A stretch of 64,000 bases of DNA. Origin: Octopus vulgaris. Its lineage: Eukaryota. Position 1 is the stretch's first letter, and each line of letters opens with the position of its first letter. Under the pieces are notes generated by a model. The model ran no database searches and was not told where the DNA came from. It saw only the letters and a list, made by a program, of their open reading frames with translations. The DNA lies in NCBI GenBank assembly GCA_951406725.2, contig OX597815.1:170996001-171060000 (forward strand), in the 5' to 3' direction. A program made the position numbers and the translations under genes. Below, one piece after another: positions 29,200 through 54,995 of this stretch.

Positions 29200-29790
29200 G
29201 AGCCAAGTTGTTACCAAGCTGCTTACACCGCTGTTACTGTCCTGTTCTGTCCATCGTATAGTAATTTTTTGCTTATTAAATGCTTAAAACACATGAGGTA
29301 CGTATGAGGTGGTCGTGAGAGTGCTAAAAAATAACAAGTAAATAGGCCTTAAATCACGCACTATTTTTCTTTTTTGCATAATCGTATGAATTCCCGTGTG
29401 TAGAATACAAATTTATAAAACTTTTCTGAAAATTTAAAAAAATAAATAAGCTATGAGGGATTATATGGCGTGCGTAACACAGAATTCCGCTAATATTTCA
29501 TTTCTTTATAGTTTGATATAAAAAATACGCAACGTTTACAACACGTACAGTCAGGCACAAAATGACAGTTTCCAAATCGTATTTTCAGACTGGGTAAAAA
29601 TTATCGAAATTTAAACCTCTGTAACTTTTTTTTATAATCTGAGATTCAGCATGGAAAATTACCTATTTACTTGTTATTTTTTAGCACTCTCACGACCACC
29701 TCATACGTACCAAAAAATTACTATACGATGGACAGAACAGGACAGTAACAGCGGTGTAAGCAGCTTGGTAACAACTTGGCTCGTTACTAT
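29192..29790. repeat. Inverted duplication (155/129-bp arms, about 315-bp spacer)
   Basis: 29192-29346 and 29662-29790 are identical except for one 26-nt indel. Confidence 0.92.
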
Positions 29791-29828
29791 CATCGATACA
29801 CCAAATTTGGGAATTTTCATTTAATTTT

Positions 29829-30335
29829 AAAAGCAAAAAGCAACAAAAGTCACTGAAAAGAATATTAACCAGCGCTAGACTTTACCCACTAACTACTGAG
29901 CCAAAAGTGACAAAATGTGGACGTTCTAACTGTGGAACATGCCCCCACCTTCTGGAGGGTTCAGAATTCCAATTCAAACAAGGAGAAATATTTAAGATCA
30001 AATCAAATTTCACCTGCGCCTCAGCAAATGTAATCTATGTCATGACACGCATAGGATGTGGTAAACTCTATATTGGACAAACAGGAATTTCACTCCGTCA
30101 AAGAATCACCATTCACAAAGAGCAAATCCATCACCCACAATACAGACAGTTAAAGGTGAGTGAACGCATAGAAAGATGCGCCAGGAATCTTAATCCCAAT
30201 TTTCAAATATTCCCCTTTTACCTATGCTCACAGAACACCACAATGCAACAAAGGCTGAATAAAGAGACATTTTTCATCAACAAATTTCTCCCCCAACTAA
30301 ATATGAACACACAACTCAATACAGAATACCACTAA
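29829..30335 (+). pseudogene. Penelope-like element C-terminus: Cys-rich Zn-finger linker + GIY-YIG endonuclease (Neptune-type), 5'-truncated
   Basis: Open frame KSKKQQKSLKRILTSAR...KCGRSNCGTC...FTCASANVIY..C..YIGQT..LRQR..H...RLNKE..I....PQLN matches the PLE GIY-YIG motifs; no RT upstream. Confidence 0.9.
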
Positions 30336-42806: not shown

Positions 42807-43084
42807 TATGGATGAATGAATTATCCTTTGCTTGCCGTTAAAATGGAAAATTCAATAAACAGTTACCAGGGTAGCAAAATTCATGCAAGTAACAAGGATG
42901 TAGCGACCTATTCAAAGGTAGAAACTCCGGGTTAATGTTCAACTACATTTATTTACTTATACATACATACATATATATATATTACATACATACACACACG
43001 CATATATACACGCTCGCACAGACAAATGTACAGAAGCATACATACACCTGAATGTATATGTGTTGTATTTGTGTGTCTGTATAA

Positions 43085-43336
43085 TCGGGTTGTGTGTTGT
43101 GCTCTTGAGCAAGACACTTTATTTCATGTTCCATTTCACTCAGTTGTAGAAATGAGATGCGACGTCAATGGTGCCAAGCTTTATCGGCTTTTGCCTTTCC
43201 CATGGATAACATCAGTGGCGAGGAGAAGGGTAGCTGGTATGCATGGGTGACTGCTGGTCTTCTATAAACAACCTTGCCCGGACTTGTGCCTCGGAGGGAA
43301 ACTTTCTAAGTACAATTCCATGGTCATTCATGACCG
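43085..43336 (+). mobile_element. SINE family C, 5'-truncated
   Basis: CTTGAGCAAGACACTTTA...CCATGGTCATTCATGACCG. Confidence 0.88.
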
Positions 43337-44169
43337 TGTGTGTGCGCGTGCGATGGTGTTTATGGGCGCGTACATGTGTGTGAGAGAGGGTTTTTTGTGC
43401 ATCTGTGTGCGTACGTGGTGCGTGTCTATGTGTGGACGTATTTGTGAGAGTGTGAGCAGGTTCGGTAAACCACTCTTACACTCTTAGCAGTGATGTTTAT
43501 AAGTCAGTTTTCAACATTCACAAAATGTTTTGTAAACACATTGTAAAGGAAAACATAAAAATATTACACTGTTTTCCCGAAGTGTATTGTTTGTTGAAGA
43601 CATTTAGTCTCATGAAACTCCACCACGTGTTTAGCTTATCTAAACTATTTTATCGAGGAATCCTCACAGATTATGCTTTGCTAGAGATCAAATCAACGGC
43701 TTGTTCTTTTTCAGTACTTCTCAACACTGACAAAAGTTATATAAACAGGAAGAGCATTATTCAGATCACCTATCATAGCTCGGATATCTATTTTAAAAGG
43801 TTACTTTCATATTTGTTTTTAAAGAAAAGATTCATATAAATATTTTTATCTCTACCTTACTCCCACTTTCTCAACTTTCATACATCGCGGAGAAAAGATA
43901 ACATTTTAAAACCCACTAAGATGATTAAACTTTGTAACTGAGTTCTTTTAAGTATGTGATACAAATTACACCCACCAAGTAAATTTCATCCAATTGATAT
44001 TTCAATAATGCACTCGGATTAACTATTCAGATGTATGTGCGTTGGGCTTTACGTGAGAAATGAAAATTCCCAATTCCAGCAACTAAATATGAACTGTATG
44101 GTTAAATATTAATGCATTTTTTCCCCTGTAACTTTGGCGTGTCCTTCACGGTACCTTTTTACATTACGA

Positions 44170-44353
44170 CGAATGATTAAAAAGCTCGCTTTATAACGAC
44201 GTCGTTTCTGGTGCAGTCCCACTGTGTGGCAGCTTAGGCAAGTGCCTTCTAGTATAACCCCGGACAGACCAGTGCATTGTAAGTGAATTTACTAGACGGA
44301 AACTGAGTGGAAGTCCGCCGTATTTTTATACACACACACACACATACACACTA

Positions 44354-44399
<46 letters not shown>

Positions 44400-44655
44400 A
44401 CAAACACACACACACGCGTATATGTATAATTCTGTGTGTATTTGTGTCTCTGTGTGTGTTGATTTCCCCACGTTTGACAACCGGTATTGGTTTGTTTATA
44501 TCCCTGTAACTGAGCGATTCGGCAGAAGAAACCAAACAGAATAAGTATCAAGTTTTAAAGCAAAAGTTAGTACAGTAGTCGATATATTCGACTAAAGGCC
44601 TTCAAGGCGTTGCTCCAGCATTGCTGGAGTCTAATGACTAAGATAAGTAAAAACT
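44170..44655 (+). mobile_element. SINE family A, diverged
   Basis: CAGTCCCACTG..GGCAAGTG head, central (CA)n, CGACTAAAGG..GCTCCAGCAT tail. Confidence 0.82.
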
Positions 44656-47600
44656 AAACGGTAAATGGTATACCTCATAGCCTTGAGCAGCAGGCAAAAC
44701 CATATTAAATAGATTGTTTACACTAATGGGTTGTTTACATTCAACGTTAAACTGTCAACAAACCCTTCTTGTTTTGTTGATGTCTTTATCATACCTTAGT
44801 TGTTTAATACCAGCGAATACATTTCGTAATCACTTACTTCGTTTTAAACCCCTACTATACGCAGTAGCAAAGTCAGTATACAGCAATACTTATCAGCATC
44901 CTCACCATTACAACAATCTATGTGCCGATCCACAAGCTTAAAACAAGCTGCTGTTATTGTGTCAATATTTCCGCTTGTCGTCATAGAGAATCAGTGAAAA
45001 GTAGGTTGTTGATCTTTTCTCTCTCGATGTTTCTCTATTGCATGAGCGTCAGTACATGAATGAATACCGTTCATTCGGCACTTCTTGGGAGTGTTTAAAA
45101 CATTTGAAATAAACTACAAGCAGCAACAATGTCAACAACCTCAAGGTAACATTTCTCTCCAAAACATGAGTGATCAGAAATAATTATCAGTTTCAATCGA
45201 TTATGTGTTAATCTTCGACATACTCTCACACACACACGCACACAAATGCGTGTACGCGCACCAACGTATAGTATAGATACACCAGACGAAAAATGTTAGC
45301 GGCGTCTGCTTATTGATGTGCATTTACTTTACACATACATCGCTATACACTAGTGGGGCCGGTATAAATTCCACAGTTTATAAAATTGCTTAATTTTATT
45401 CTGATGCATAAATTTACATATTTTCATAACATGATTTCATTAGGTCACATATTTTTTTGCGATAATGAATTAAACCACTGAAGCTGTTAAAAATCTAAAA
45501 TTGAAATGACTTGTAGCGTTAAAAACAATAAAATAAATATTAAGTACTACTCAGCAGACATTTGAAGACTATTGTGTTTAGCACAGGAGCTCGCCATATA
45601 TAATATTTAATTGAAAACTCCACTGTACACAAAGCTTTCATTACAGCCTTTCTTCATTGTTTTCATGAATTATTTGACTGCAAAACTCCAATATCCGAGG
45701 GTTTGGGGACTCGCAAAAAGGGGATATATATTTATGCGGCCTTCACTCCTAGAACACTAAGAAATCTTAACTTCATGAATTTATATTTTAGAACTAAATG
45801 AAGTTAGTACAAAAATATTTTGGATATTTTTCCTGAAATTATCAGCTTCTTCATCATGGACATCAAAGAGAACGAAGTCACAATTTACCGATGAAACCAG
45901 AATTAGAAACCTGTTTCTTAATCTCAAACTTTCACAACATGAACAAAATTTCAACATTTCTCCAACATTAGACACTCTTCTGAGCCCACCAAGTCATCTC
46001 TGATGTGGTCTTCGAACGTTTCTCAAATAGAGCTAGTGTTCTACGTTCGTGTTTATTCGATATAGTTCATGAAGTTCTTTCTGATATTCCGTAAATTTCT
46101 ACCCATACCCTCTTTCTCTCTCTCTCTCTTGAGATACGGTGTCTTATGCGCTTTTAAACTTGGTGGTAACCATATCTATCCAGATCTGACCACAGTCAGT
46201 TTTCTCCAAGAGAGAGAGAAAGATAGATAAAAAGACGAAAGAAAGACTAAGAGAAAAGAATCGATCTCAATACAGGATTAGTGTTGTATTTATCGACCAC
46301 TAATAGGTGACTGGTATATTTGACATCCGAGGGATTAGAATTCAGTGCGAAGAATGCGGGAACGATTATTGCACAAACCAATCTAATCGATTCTATAATG
46401 ATTTTGCCAATTCGCTTCTTAAACGAGTTCGTGCGCGTGCGTATGTATGTATGTGTGTGTGTGTGTGTGTATACGCGCGTGTGTATGTGTGTGTGAACGA
46501 ACATTTTTTTACATGGTTTCTGTCTACAAAGTTTTAAATTGTATTAATTTTTTATTAATCTGAAGCTATAATAAATCGAACTTGAAACTGCGTAGCTATG
46601 AACTAAATTCTTAATCACAGTTGTGCCTGAACTTAGTTGTCTATTAACCTCACTTTCTTTTTTTTTTCTTCTTCTAAATCTGCCATTATCGGTACAGCTT
46701 TTACATTCCTACTACATTCATCAGTAATTTCTCGTGTTTCGATTGTTTTATTTTATTATATTTACTTGACTCATATGTTCCGGTCTGTAGAACATGGCAT
46801 ATCAATAATTGTTATATTATCAATTATCATATCAATAATAATATAACCAACAATTAGCAACAAATCCACAATTAGGTTTTAGCAGTCCACTATGGGTGCA
46901 TTTTTAATTTCAAGCACTTTTCTCAACCGTTCTACGAATATTGATGGACCGGAGATGGTTAAATTTTGTGGCTGCCAAGATGGACTACTGCAATAGAAAT
47001 GGAGTACAAGAGGTTGGAACGTCGGCAGGGGCAATTGATATACTATTAAATTTATAGATATGCGCTAGACTTGTGTGCCTCACTTTTGATAGACGCCTAT
47101 AGCAACAGCTAGTAGACTAGAAACATTCCTAGTTGTCTGAACCGAGAAGAAGTGGTGCTATTAGAAAACATGTAAACAAAACTGGCATCATTATAGTTCC
47201 CGGTTCTTAAATCTACTAAACGCATAGTCTAGGATTTTGACCCAACGTGCTCTTTTTTATCGACCTTAGTGTTATTGGCAGCATGAAAATTTCTGGGTAA
47301 TTGCGGATACGTTTATTTAGATTGTAGAGAGGGTTTGTAACAAACCCGGCTTTCGTGGTCTCTGAGTTACTTGGGTTAATCCAAAGCTTTCTATAGGGTC
47401 GGCTTTTCCTATTGCAGCCGATTTCGTTTCCATTTTCATCAGTGTTGATCATTTTTATAAAGCAGAACCTGCTTGCTGGTCAGAATATGTGGCTACCTAT
47501 CGGAAACATTTTAAGGCAAATTCACGATTCATCAAGGGCGACGTCTTCTGTCACTTCTATTCTGGCTCATGAACACTAGACGTGCTTAGCAGAAGAGCTA

Positions 47601-47734
47601 AGTCAGTATCATGATGATACGGTAGAAATCGATGAATATGGTGTGGTAACGGGAGCATGCGTAATCTGAAAATCGACTGAACTTTTACATTATTTACATT
47701 TGACGGATATTTGTCCTCATCTTGTTTGTTGTTA

Positions 47735-47779
47735 GCACAACGTTTCGGCTGATATACCCTCTAGCTTTCGTTAGGTGTC
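47735..47779 (-). ncRNA. Mutated hammerhead (inverted arm)
   Basis: GACAC-CUAACGA-A-AGCUA...CAGCC-GAAA-CGUU-GUGC; G5 lost and stem II broken. Confidence 0.7.
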
Positions 47780-47837
47780 TTGGGGAAATTTCGAACCTAG
47801 GTTCTCATTCCTAAGGTATTTTTCGATCTTATTATTA

Positions 47838-47885
<48 letters not shown>

Positions 47886-47927
47886 TCAGTGTCTGGAATC
47901 GATTCCAGGCAGTGACTTGAATAATAA

Positions 47928-48003
<76 letters not shown>

Positions 48004-48109
48004 AAGAAGAAGAAGAAGAAAAAATAATAATAATAATAATAATAATAACAACAACAACAACATCGAAAAATACCTTAGGAATGAGAACCCAGGTTCGACA
48101 TTTCCCCAA

Positions 48110-48155
48110 GACACCTGATGAAGGCTGGAATGTATATCAGCCGAAACGTTGTGTT
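48110..48155 (+). ncRNA. Minimal type I hammerhead ribozyme, intact
   Basis: GACAC-CUGAUGA-A-GGCUG-(10 nt)-CAGCC-GAAA-CGUU-GUGUU; palindromic AACGUU; predicted cleavage after 48150. Confidence 0.88.
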
Positions 48156-48964
48156 AACAACAAACAAGATGAGGACAACCGTCAAATGTAAATAATGTGC
48201 ATAATCCCTCATCTCTTAAATATAGAACTGTATGACTGAACTTTTACTGAGTGCAATTGCAAGCAAGTCTCTGCCGGCCAGCGTTATAGGTCACTGTACT
48301 AAGAGTCCTGTAACTTTGCCGGATATCTACAAGAGTAGGAACCGGAACGAGTTGCAAGCCGAGTAAGCAGTCACACTCAGAACTGCGATGAATCTATTCC
48401 CAAAGAATTGTCGAAAGCATGTATGACATCCATTATTTATAACTACCAAATCATCACTTGTGGTCTCAATTTTTATGTGATCATATTGGAGTAACTTTTC
48501 ATTGGTATCTTATGAAAACGGAGCATTCCAACGATTAGACGGTCTTTTGTAACCAACATTCAATGCACAGGGTGATAGTATGCAGTAGTTGATTGATTTT
48601 CGGGTGTGCAACGAACCTGTGACATCTGAAGATAGCCGGATCTAGAGATGTTCCTTTATAATGCCACTATTTTTTCTTAACATATAATTTTTATTCTGCT
48701 GGTCATATTAGCTATCTGGATGTTATGCTTTTATTAATCTTAACTCTGGAACAAAATAGAAGAGACAGATGAAATCTGTAACATAATAAAACTTAATATA
48801 GTTATAATTTCAGGTGTTAGGCTTTAAACAGTAAAAATTAATAAACCAATATTATGAAGACCTATAATTTTATGGATCAAAATAGAAACAAGAACGTTTA
48901 TAAAACACGGAATTTCCACAGTCCTGCTAATTGTTTGATCAGTTTATTATTACACAGAAGTTTA

Positions 48965-49160
48965 AGGCAGTGAGCAAGCCTGGCAAAATCCTTAGCGGCA
49001 TTTCGTCCGTCTCTATGTTCTGAGTTCAAATTCCGCTGAGGTCGACTTTGTTTTCATCGTTTCGGTGTCGATAAAGTAAGTACCAATTAAACACTGGGTA
49101 GGATGTGACTGACTTATCTCACACCCGAACTTGCTGGCCTTGTGCTACAGTTTGAAATCA
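48965..49160 (+). mobile_element. SINE family B
   Basis: GAGTTCAAATTCCGCTGAGGTCGACTTTG core. Confidence 0.82.
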
Positions 49161-51619
49161 TTATTACATAGAGATTACTATCAGCCAGTTAACAAATTCG
49201 CATGCCTTCTCTTGAAGTAATATCAACTCCATCAGCAGTAGTGCTTTGCAAGGAAGGGGACGAGAACTAGTTTGATTAGTAACTGTTCTTTTACCCTTGT
49301 TCATAACATGCATTTGTGGTTGGCAACAATATTTTTGTGAAATACGATAACGAATGTAATCACATGCCTATATATCGATATATCGAATCATTGATATTAT
49401 TTTAATGGTTTGATAGAATATTGATTTTTGACAGAGGCACCAGGCCAAAAGTTTTATGGAAGAATTTAATCGATCAAATCAATGTCCCATAGCTTTTATT
49501 TTTCCAATTCTGAAAGCGTGAACGGTGACATCGACAACGATGAGATCTGAACTCAGAGACGTAATTGAATATCTTAAAACATTTTGTTCTTTTCCAAACT
49601 GATATTGCCAACCCACTACCCCTTATCACTTCTAGTTTTCCTTTCATTGTGTCTATATGTTACTTTATAAGTTCTACGAGAAATCAATGTAAAATGAGTT
49701 TAATATCAGCTATTGTCGGGGAAATTAAATAGTGAATACTAAAATAGGCTTATGATGATAACAGGATATACAAATACGAAGGCCATTCAATTACTGTAAT
49801 ATAAGGAAATATCGTAATTTTTGAACTGGATAAGTAGTTTTGTGTCTTATATAGCGGCCTCTTATAACGTCAAATATTTATACTTATAACCAATACATTA
49901 GATTTCAAGTTACTAAAATGCTGATAAATGGCGTAAAAATCCCAAATTATTTTTATAAGCTGCAGTAGTGTTGTTTTATTTATGAATATTCAGTTATGCC
50001 GTGCTAAAATGAAATTTTCCAACAGACTATAAATTAGGATCCCCAATTTTTAAAGTAAGTTTTACAGTTAATACGGTCCCTTAGTTTTGATTTCGGGCTC
50101 ATGTGATATTTGGTATGCAACATTACATTTTACGCCAAATTTCTTATATGATGCAGTCATTCGCCATTTAGTGGAAATACTATTCGAACGCGAGTGATTT
50201 CGTGATGTTTACAGTAATGAATAGCGTCGAGACAGATGTTACTGCATTACTAACAACGATGCATAAAACACAAGTCTAAAGAAGGTACGGAAAATTAAAA
50301 GTCATAGTATATTCAGAAGGGATAGTGATAGATAGGAATATATGAGAAAGAGTTTACATCAAATATTTAGAAAACTTCTGTTTGAAAAAGAAAAAAATAG
50401 CGTCTACCTAACATTGTGCCATTGATTTGGAAATCTCAATTATATACTTGGCGCCTTTCAAGAAGAGAATAGAAATAGAGAAATATGGCTTCAATGGAAA
50501 AAAAAATCCATACATTAAAAAAAAAATGGAAAGATTATCATTAGATTAACAATCATTCTGCTGTTTTGGAAGTAACTAGCGCACAGCTGTATGATATATG
50601 CATACAATTTATGAGAATCGTCAAAGCAAGAAGATATATACAGCTATACATCTATTCATTTCGTCTCTCTATATATTTTTATTTCTTTTCGAAAATATCG
50701 ATTCATAGTAAGTTTGGGAATATTGATATAAATATTGAAAAATGTTGTAAATACATAAAAGTTAAAACATAAATGGCCCGAACGAAAATTTTAGCGCAGA
50801 TGAAGAGGTATTGAAATGTTGGTTTAGAGGCGTTGTACTGAAAATTCACGTAATATTCTGAAAGAACCGCAATACAAAAGAAACAAACACAATTGAATGG
50901 ATTTAAAATAATAAAAAAAAAAGGAAAATACAACTCAAGGAGATATTGATGATCTGCATCATCACATTAGTAAATTATAACTTTTGCAAGACGTTAACAT
51001 GCTCTATAACAGCCGAAAATATAACGAGCGGGGAAAACATACTATCTACTATCTAGCATGTGATATTGCAGTAAAGCAAGACCAATAGAATTGCAATTTA
51101 ATCAAATCGAACGATTGATTTGTGAAAAAAAAATTAAGTATGGTGTATTTCCCTCATTATTTATGGTGCTAAATTGCTGAACGCTCTAAAAAAAAGTCCA
51201 AACGATGCTATTCTACTATGATGTGTATTCCACATGTCTTTTTTAATACTTTCATATACCAATCAGATAATTATTTAATTTGTAGTATCAGAAATAATTG
51301 TTACCACTATTATAATTATAGCTGCTGCTACTGCTACGACAACAATTAATTACAATGGCAGCTAGCATAGGAACACTACCACAGATTTCGTGCGCGGGTG
51401 CAGCCGTACTTGACAGGTATTTTATTTTAGCGCTGTCAGAGGAATTAAAATGAACTCTGTGAGATTTGAACTCAGAATGACAAAATAAAGAAGACTAAAT
51501 AAATAACGCAAGGCACCCTATCCAGTTCCCTACCGATTCTAGCATTTATCGCCGTTGTCTATGTTATTATTTTCAATTTCAACATCATCATCATTGTTGT
51601 TATTGTTGTTGTTATTATT

Positions 51620-54177: not shown

Positions 54178-54995
54178 CAGGAAATACCAACTAATTACCT
54201 GATGCAGAAAAGGGATAAAGATGCAGAAAAAGCCATAAAATGTGACAACTGATGCAGATGTTGTGGAGTTCACACTGAAGATATCACCCACATCATAAGC
54301 AGGTGTCCGAAAATGTCATCACAGTATTATCTACCGATGAGACATGATGTTGTAGCTATGACACTCTATAATGAAATCCGTCGGAAGGATAATCCCGAGG
54401 ACAAAGAAATAAGAACCCACAATATGATAGAAGCCATAGCCACTCATAATAAAAAGGAATACTGGTGGAATGTAGCAGTGAAGACCTCAATAAAATGTAA
54501 GCACAGCAGACCTGATATAATGATTTGGGATAGCCAAGAGAAATCTGCAGTTACTCTATCCAGATTACAAGTTCAGCTATATACCTGTAATTATTGGGGC
54601 CCTGGGATATGTAACACACTGACTAAATACTAATCTTGAGAAATTAAGCTTCTTAAAACCTGAAAGGAGAAAGCTAATTCGAAGACTACAAATCCAATCC
54701 ATCACTGGAACTGTAAAATCTGCAAGACTTTCCAGAAGTTTATCATTTAAATATATATATGAACATGTCTAGATATGCATGAGAATACGTACATAAATCA
54801 TACAAATCTGCACGCACATACATACATACATACATACATACATACATACATACATACATACATACATACATACATACATACAAACAAAAATACCCTGTTG
54901 TTGATGCTGAAATTTCAATGATGGAGCATTGGCTCTAGGTCAGAAACCTGTTCTTTCTCTATTGGCAAGAAATCTTGAATTAAACTGAATAATGA
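54178..54995 (+). mobile_element. 5'-truncated R4/Dong-type RLE LINE (CCHC knuckle + endonuclease + 3' UTR)
   Basis: QEIPTNYL...[18 protein letters not shown]...RHDVVA...YWWN....RPDIMIWD, then a deletion/frameshift, then LYPDYKFSYIPVIIGALG...QSITGTVKICKTFQKFII* (stop at 54748-54750). Confidence 0.9.

Follow-up and report, generated by a model that had tools for sequence, protein, structure and literature searches.

A tRNA-like head in the pseudo-LTR of an octopus Penelope-like element and its possible role in the formation of SINE-like copies

By definition, SINEs are non-autonomous and are partnered with LINEs. Here we describe an abundant Penelope-like element (PLE) of Octopus vulgaris in which a tRNA-derived, promoter-like sequence (the head) was built into the pseudo-LTR of a protein-coding element, and most of the more than 5000 head-bearing arms began there. 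Judging from sequence features, this PLE probably captured a tRNA-type promoter, and a Pol III start near position -6 of the head would yield the element's own SINE-like RNA (+1 being the first base of the tRNA-like sequence). The starting point was a palindromic insert in a 64,000-nucleotide stretch of the octopus genome (the window), which was almost certainly a 5'-truncated, inverted pair of pseudo-LTRs from this PLE. The first-pass annotation had regarded the insert as a separate SINE that used PLE machinery. This part of the proposal had to be abandoned since the short unit, including its head, was the autonomous element's own pseudo-LTR.

The insert occupied positions 47689-48233 (545 bp) and was bracketed by exact 14-bp direct repeats on the plus strand at 47675-47688 and 48234-48247. 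Only 0.0008 chance copies of such a repeat were expected in the window, in agreement with the perfect target site duplication (TSD) noticed at first. The left boundary of the insert was ambiguous by 2 nt because the two innermost nucleotides of the left TSD copy also matched the element end. The insert was indeed a loop-less palindrome with its centre between 47900 and 47901. Its arms measured 212 nt (left) and 333 nt (right) and differed in the length of a microsatellite; apart from this microsatellite, their complementarity was about 90%. The divergence of both arms from the family majority sequence was typical of the family (7 mismatches over 142 nt for the left arm and 5 over 173 positions for the right arm).

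The left arm (47689-47900, minus strand) was an inverted, untailed and 5'-truncated pseudo-LTR copy. It contained a hammerhead with a mutated core (G5 to A) that was probably inactive (47733-47778), the (AAT)n microsatellite of the pseudo-LTR (47827-47881) and a remnant of the tRNA-like head starting from the 3' part of the B box (47882-47902). The right arm, on the plus strand, consisted of a head remnant corresponding to about +55 to +75 (47899-47919), an (AAT/AAG/AAC)n microsatellite (47920-48060), the unique pseudo-LTR module (48061-48198), which ended at the inner end site common to the untailed arm, and the PLE tail (48199-48233). As previously noted, this 35-nt tail was unpaired, and it was present in the right arm only. 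Comparison with the family head placed the inversion junction at the self-complementary TCGA found in both arms (47899-47902), where the first-pass annotation had put it, with a microhomology of 4 nt. The insert had also been said to encode no protein. This was true of a whole protein but not of positions 48081-48233 on the plus strand, which corresponded to the first codons of the PLE ORF with its ATG at 48081 and a 4-nt deletion after 48178. The window copy had lost the A box and the first bases of the B box and therefore contained no promoter; without box A, it would not be a source of Pol III transcripts. Thus, the window copy itself was an ordinary dead fragment.

The parent element was sought in the whole genome (2.8 Gb, 227 contigs). 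A search with the 173-nt module returned 2019 candidates, of which 40 were scored and 30 were fetched, and in most of the 30 fetched loci the module was preceded by the tRNA-like head and then (AAT)n. At one of the loci (L005), the head continued into the end of an endonuclease-like ORF. We then used the endonuclease peptide and fetched 20 loci from 150 scored matches, picking mostly those with long open frames. In 19 of these 20 endonuclease-selected loci (the exception was L044), the head was located about 50 nt 3' of the endonuclease stop. Namely, longer copies connected the head directly to the PLE ORF, an outcome that the first-pass annotation had named as refuting a separate SINE. The complete unit was approximately 2615 nt long and comprised the head, (AAT)n, the ATG, the hammerhead, the tail, the ORF for reverse transcriptase (RT) and a putative endonuclease, a 3' UTR of about 50 nt and the head again, with the pseudo-LTR module present at both ends of the ORF.

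The majority sequence contained a single ORF of about 820 codons that was colinear with full-length homologs at 39-56% identity. Its RT was recognized by Pfam RVT_1 (E 1.8e-8), and the profile matches of the ORF also included telomerase RT. The first codons spanned the hammerhead and the tail, and a family copy matched homolog P0003 in this region (48% identity, E 4e-17). The assignment of the C-terminal domain as a GIY-YIG endonuclease was weaker than the RT assignment, being based on a motif pattern with invariant Y, Y, T, E-H, R and E residues, on a match of homolog P0008 to Pfam GIY-YIG below the cut-off (E 0.017) and on a sub-threshold match to T4 endonuclease II (E 0.012). The Pfam search of the family's own pieces yielded no GIY-YIG match, and a single-sequence fold of the endonuclease was uninformative (pLDDT 46). 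Accordingly, the expectation of an autonomous PLE sharing the 3' end was borne out with respect to an RT-encoding element with the same hammerhead and tail, while GIY-YIG was reached only below the threshold. The family had an RT in addition to the pseudo-LTR, hammerhead motif and tail, which had been listed as PLE hallmarks at the outset, and by these features it was a PLE. Its domain order and motifs suggest that it belongs to the Penelope/Poseidon clade. A search for sister families with P0003 gave 59 matches, and all 20 loci fetched from them belonged to the same family.

Several loci had structures of their own. The longest open frame that we saw was a family copy with 569 uninterrupted codons at L161 (G000:C2:165608904-165610592). 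Locus L159 was a partial tandem where the endonuclease end preceded a pseudo-LTR that continued into the ORF, with deletions. At L143 and L153, the 5' part of the ORF was joined directly to head position +1 to +3, and these joints suggest template switching at the head start.

By sequence inspection, the right-arm hammerhead motif (48110-48155, minimal type I, predicted cleavage after 48150) was intact, as first described: all the core nucleotides were in place, stem II (6 bp) was preceded by a bulged base, and stem III was replaced by a palindromic ACGU. Its predicted fold had an energy of -12.6 kcal/mol (z -2.3; 4 of 200 shuffles were as good), and the left-arm motif gave no fold signal (z +0.8). 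A bulged base before stem II, a G-C first pair and a palindromic stem III were reported for minimal PLE hammerheads in the available text of PMC4209133, and the family motif possessed all three. All 11 core bases were kept in 65 of 136 family arms. The Rfam search did not find a hammerhead in the window at E values up to 5, and neither a hammerhead nor a tRNA was found in the window or in 5 family loci; the Rfam miRNA matches were discarded as microsatellite artefacts. For comparison, we used a metagenome set of 79 loci of related PLEs, and in 25 of these the sequence extended at least 250 nt beyond the endonuclease. The hammerhead motif was found downstream of the endonuclease in 17 of these 25 loci from other organisms.

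The central sequence TCGATTCC of the insert had been interpreted as the 3' part of a B box, and the family copies supported this because they contained a full head with both boxes. As predicted, this tRNA-like head was located upstream in the longer copies. The head was compared with tRNAs taken from 30 genomic loci, an incomplete set in which the best match was tRNA-Arg (50 of 73 positions identical) and other isotypes scored close. The score of tRNA-Arg was 61.5, compared to at most 43.5 for 200 shuffles. With respect to the consensus in the available text of PMC7279448, box A was a full match and box B matched at 10 of 11 positions. Box A was kept in 130 of 165 arms, the 10-nt core of box B in 117 and both in 91. 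Since the copies all trace back to a single majority sequence, this conservation was inseparable from a recent origin. The head cloverleaf was decayed, and ARAGORN identified no tRNA gene in 30 family loci; the output of its relaxed mode was rejected as noise. RNase P-type processing at +1 was unlikely because the head had no acceptor stem.

None of the 25 related PLE loci from other organisms had A and B boxes after the endonuclease, and in the octopus genome itself the boxes were absent from two fragments of a PLE of another type. Therefore, the head was particular to this family among those tested. The end of the 3' UTR (-18 to -3 relative to the head) was a degenerate inverted copy of head positions +1 to +17, which is possibly a scar of the capture of the head.

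Exact 20-mers were found genome-wide 5148 times in the head and 1080 times just upstream of it, at -36 to -17. Short copies outnumbered long ones by about 5 to 1 or more, and most copies extended from the head to the tail only. Best-hit bias was avoided with a position-ordered sample: from those head matches on contig C1 that were listed first, 60 regions were taken in positional order, and they contained 62 arms. One arm with its junction at the anchor was dropped, L235 was counted at its outer head, and L217 and L237 were moved to the long class owing to deletions at the site; the pairs L202/L203 and L215/L218 looked duplicated and were thus not independent. The genome-wide share of the upstream 20-mer (1080/5148, 21%) implied more long copies than this sample (7/61). 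The majority base was identical in 129 short and 47 long arms at every position of the head and of the hammerhead module, and head divergence was 4.4% for short and 5.2% for long arms. Since the two classes shared one majority sequence and had similar divergence, there was no separate SINE lineage. Sampled copies were single arms or inverted pairs, not head-to-tail tandems. An inverted partner was located upstream of 42 of the 62 arms, and a loop-less palindrome was thus routine for the family.

The 5' ends of the copies were concentrated at the start of the head. In the position-ordered sample, 46 of the 53 arms that reached +9 ended between -7 and +9, compared to 11% expected from the truncation rate at +10 to +29; this window was chosen after seeing the data, which inflates the corresponding P value. 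Similarly, 28 of 30 head-selected (best-hit) copies ended between -15 and +6, and another best-hit set, judged by eye, was in agreement for about 22 of 26 copies. The available text of PMC7279448 places box A at about +12 relative to the start of Pol III transcription. Therefore, the start was predicted at about -4, and the observed edge was at -6/-7. All ten arms scored at -7 were preceded by A, as in a fold-back form, versus T in the long element. The -7 fold-back junction was present in 58 of 100 copies among the matches listed (of 992). The -14 fold-back, which is possible only on templates reaching -14, was present in 2 of 100 among the matches listed (of 220), although it was the more stable form (-5.3 versus -2.6 kcal/mol). 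The rarity of the -14 form despite its greater stability fits cDNA run-off at an RNA end near -6 followed by snap-back.

A different explanation, possible although clearly less probable than a Pol III start, was that the head was a passenger, namely an inserted tRNA-derived sequence in an element transcribed by Pol II. In that case, the hairpin and palindromes at -18 to +17 would stall the RT, and the cDNAs would fold back or anneal. The hairpin at the head start had predicted energies of -6.1 kcal/mol for -14 to +9 and -17.2 kcal/mol for -30 to +30. Furthermore, 11 of 26 deletions in 34 long copies fell between -30 and +20, so that this site, which overlaps the hairpin and palindromes, disturbs reverse transcription on long templates too. 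Many junctions used CATATG or the TGCCC/GGGCA stem, the palindrome used as the junction of the window copy was distant from the start of the head, and the lack of a separate short lineage was also in line with this explanation. On the other hand, many junctions at -4 to +4 joined unrelated sequence without a palindrome, and the more stable -14 fold-back should not have been the rare one. Moreover, 22 of the 62 arms ended at -2 to -7, beyond the point where the RNA hairpin meant to block the enzyme was already unwound, and this modest hairpin would need to stop about 80-87% of passes.

It was improbable, in our estimation, that the accumulation of ends marked a real start made by Pol II from an ordinary internal promoter of the pseudo-LTR, with the tRNA-like boxes being incidental. 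Internal promoters are described for PLE pseudo-LTRs in the available text of PMC2377424 and PMC8557442, including a TATA-less one in the D. virilis Penelope (PMC2377424), and the junctions reveal an RNA end rather than the polymerase responsible for it. However, this end was no more than 2-3 nt away from the start that box A predicts, and both boxes matched the Pol III consensus. Alternatively, a SINE family in its own right could have combined a tRNA head with a 3' end borrowed from the PLE and spread from separate master copies. This would account for the excess of short copies and for the perfect-hairpin form that was absent from the long element (short masters could have produced the -7-stem copies), but this very improbable reading was largely refuted by the same head in the autonomous element at 19 of 20 loci and by the lack of any differing majority base or marked difference in divergence between short and long arms.

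RNA-seq data were also considered. Three raw runs had equal depth on both strands and no pile-up of starts where an RNA start was sought. From the head to the endonuclease, the depth fell only about 1.5-fold in these runs; in one contig set, the type of which was uncertain, the step was about 8-fold. The coverage of the family was best read as host read-through, and joints between arms were visible in the raw reads. The 5' ends of 14 copies selected at the ORF start were uninformative, as only L155 reached the head start.

If a tRNA-type promoter was captured, as we favour, its history would be as follows. A tRNA-derived sequence with a short inverted 5' end was likely inserted into the ancestral pseudo-LTR, leaving what is now a degenerate hairpin from -18 to +17. 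Every intact pseudo-LTR, also that at the 3' end of a long copy, would have a Pol III start near -6, and the RNA would contain the head, microsatellite, hammerhead and tail and extend to the next T-run. The element's own protein would likely retrotranspose this short RNA as a SINE-like copy. For an anole PLE in vitro, the available text of PMC11167929 describes cleavage of both strands and two start sites of reverse transcription. Exactly one tailed arm was found in 29 of 35 scorable inverted pairs in our sample, which matches the two start sites and the two-strand cleavage of that assay. The octopus PLE protein would likewise cut both target strands and initiate reverse transcription at two positions separated by 35 nt, so that one cDNA would have the tail and the other would lack it. 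Whether extended to the 5' end of the RNA or terminated before it, the cDNAs would then, as we infer, join via microhomology. In the window copy, both cDNAs would have ended within the B box and paired through TCGA, producing a loop-less palindrome that was a promoterless dead end.

A bolder reading, which we consider doubtful, is that Pol III transcribes the whole 2.6-kb coding unit from the upstream pseudo-LTR, in addition to the short RNA. The unit would then be an autonomous retrotransposon driven by a captured tRNA promoter, in which a single sequence serves as both LINE-like and SINE-like element. The head was located about 110 nt upstream of the ATG, and the ORF-bearing copy L155 started at +4. 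There were no T4 terminators in the 2615 nt of the majority sense strand, compared to 2.5-3.0 expected (P 0.058 under a dinucleotide null and P 0.024 under a codon null). We rejected this depletion as proof of Pol III transcription because it was non-specific: T4 occurred at 0.70 per kb in natural PLE pieces, and there were 0-1 per ORF in several R4-like ORFs from the same loci.

Canonical endonuclease-bearing PLEs, such as Poseidon of Anolis carolinensis, shared many features with this family as far as the available text of PMC11167929, PMC8557442 and PMC4209133 describes them. Both had a single ORF with RT and a C-terminal endonuclease (a putative one in the octopus family), a minimal pseudo-LTR hammerhead overlapping the ORF start (the anole PLE ORF starts in the hammerhead; PMC11167929), two end sites that defined a tail of 30-40 nt and an inverted, 5'-truncated partner. 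Unlike them, the octopus family had tRNA-derived A and B boxes in the pseudo-LTR at the place where most 5' ends stopped, a feature without counterpart in the 25 related loci. The TRIMp3 elements Cassandra, Helenus and Ajax (PMC10886601, available text) similarly possess a small-RNA-derived Pol III promoter within the terminal repeat, for which a SINE insertion into the repeat was proposed. However, they are non-autonomous LTR elements, the autonomous partners of which were argued to require Pol II, whereas the tRNA-derived sequence here was located in a protein-coding PLE. Instead of LTRs with PBS and PPT, a 4-5-bp TSD and the lack of an ORF, which define TRIMp3, we found a 14-bp TSD, a PLE tail and a coding body.

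The Schistosoma SINE-like repeats SM-alpha and Sj-alpha resembled this family in combining a promoter, which is putative in the octopus, with a hammerhead. In the available text of PMC6765202, they are tandem and non-coding, and an autonomous element with the same promoter does not appear there. In contrast, the octopus copies were dispersed, often formed inverted pairs, were tailed and were identical to the PLE's own pseudo-LTR. Animal non-LTR retrozymes, as presented in the accessible part of bioRxiv 10.64898/2026.07.22.740005, are non-coding, hammerhead-bearing derivatives of PLE pseudo-LTRs like the insert, but they consist of tandem repeats with a ribozyme per unit, while the insert was a head-to-head pair with one ribozyme per strand and a tRNA-like head. 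Thus, the insert did not contain the head-to-tail units, each with a hammerhead, by which retrozymes are recognized.

The tRNA-derived SINEs OK, OR1 and OR2 of octopus were reportedly described by Ohshima and Okada in 1994, and the heads of OR1 and OR2 are said to derive from tRNA-Arg. By description alone, they were similar to this family in having tRNA-derived heads; OR2 is a CORE SINE according to the available text of PMC4758252. A tRNA SINE has a head with boxes A and B, which was true of the family, and only a B-box remnant was kept in the window copy. Such a SINE is also non-autonomous and resembles its partner at the 3' end only, whereas here the whole short unit was contained within the autonomous element. 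Judged by its structure, the short form would work like a tRNA SINE, yet it did not constitute a separate family. Our literature search, which extended to sources other than subscription journals, Repbase, Dfam and SINEBase, found no PLE with a tRNA-derived pseudo-LTR and no PLE-mobilised SINE; prior annotation in those resources is therefore possible. In the available text of the octopus repeat papers PMC13282606 and PMC8967140, Penelope and SINEs are mentioned separately.

As far as the available text of PMC10886601 goes, Pol III promoters in terminal repeats were described only in non-coding elements. If the use of Pol III proposed here is true, it would provide a route for an autonomous element to generate its own SINE and would extend SINE-type mobilisation to PLE enzymes. 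The family could then also serve to test if the ORF of a retrotransposon can be borne by an RNA made by Pol III. In addition, the thousands of natural junctions bear on the unsolved question of how inverted, one-tailed PLE insertions form. Annotation pipelines are likely to split this family into "SINE" and "Penelope" entries.

The family and the insert were accompanied by other repeats. A second retroelement was often located inside the (AAT)n of the pseudo-LTR (L020, L028, L030, L035, L207, L216 and L221), and one 470-nt piece was present at 20 of 240 loci. From its zinc-knuckle motif, we took this element to contain the end of an R4/Dong-like ORF. Another R4/Dong-like ORF fragment was found in the window at 54253-54633 (plus strand), adjoining a long (AT)n tract. 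Another type of PLE, presumably Neptune-like, was represented by endonuclease fragments that had a cysteine-rich linker; they were located in the window at 29772-30335 (plus strand) and at L045 (minus strand). After the L045 piece came CCAAT and TGACGTC motifs in tandem, and there were no A or B boxes. Finally, other high-copy repeats flanked the insert at about 43000-43400, 44100-44700 and 48900-49200 of the window, with up to 118 matches among the fetched loci.
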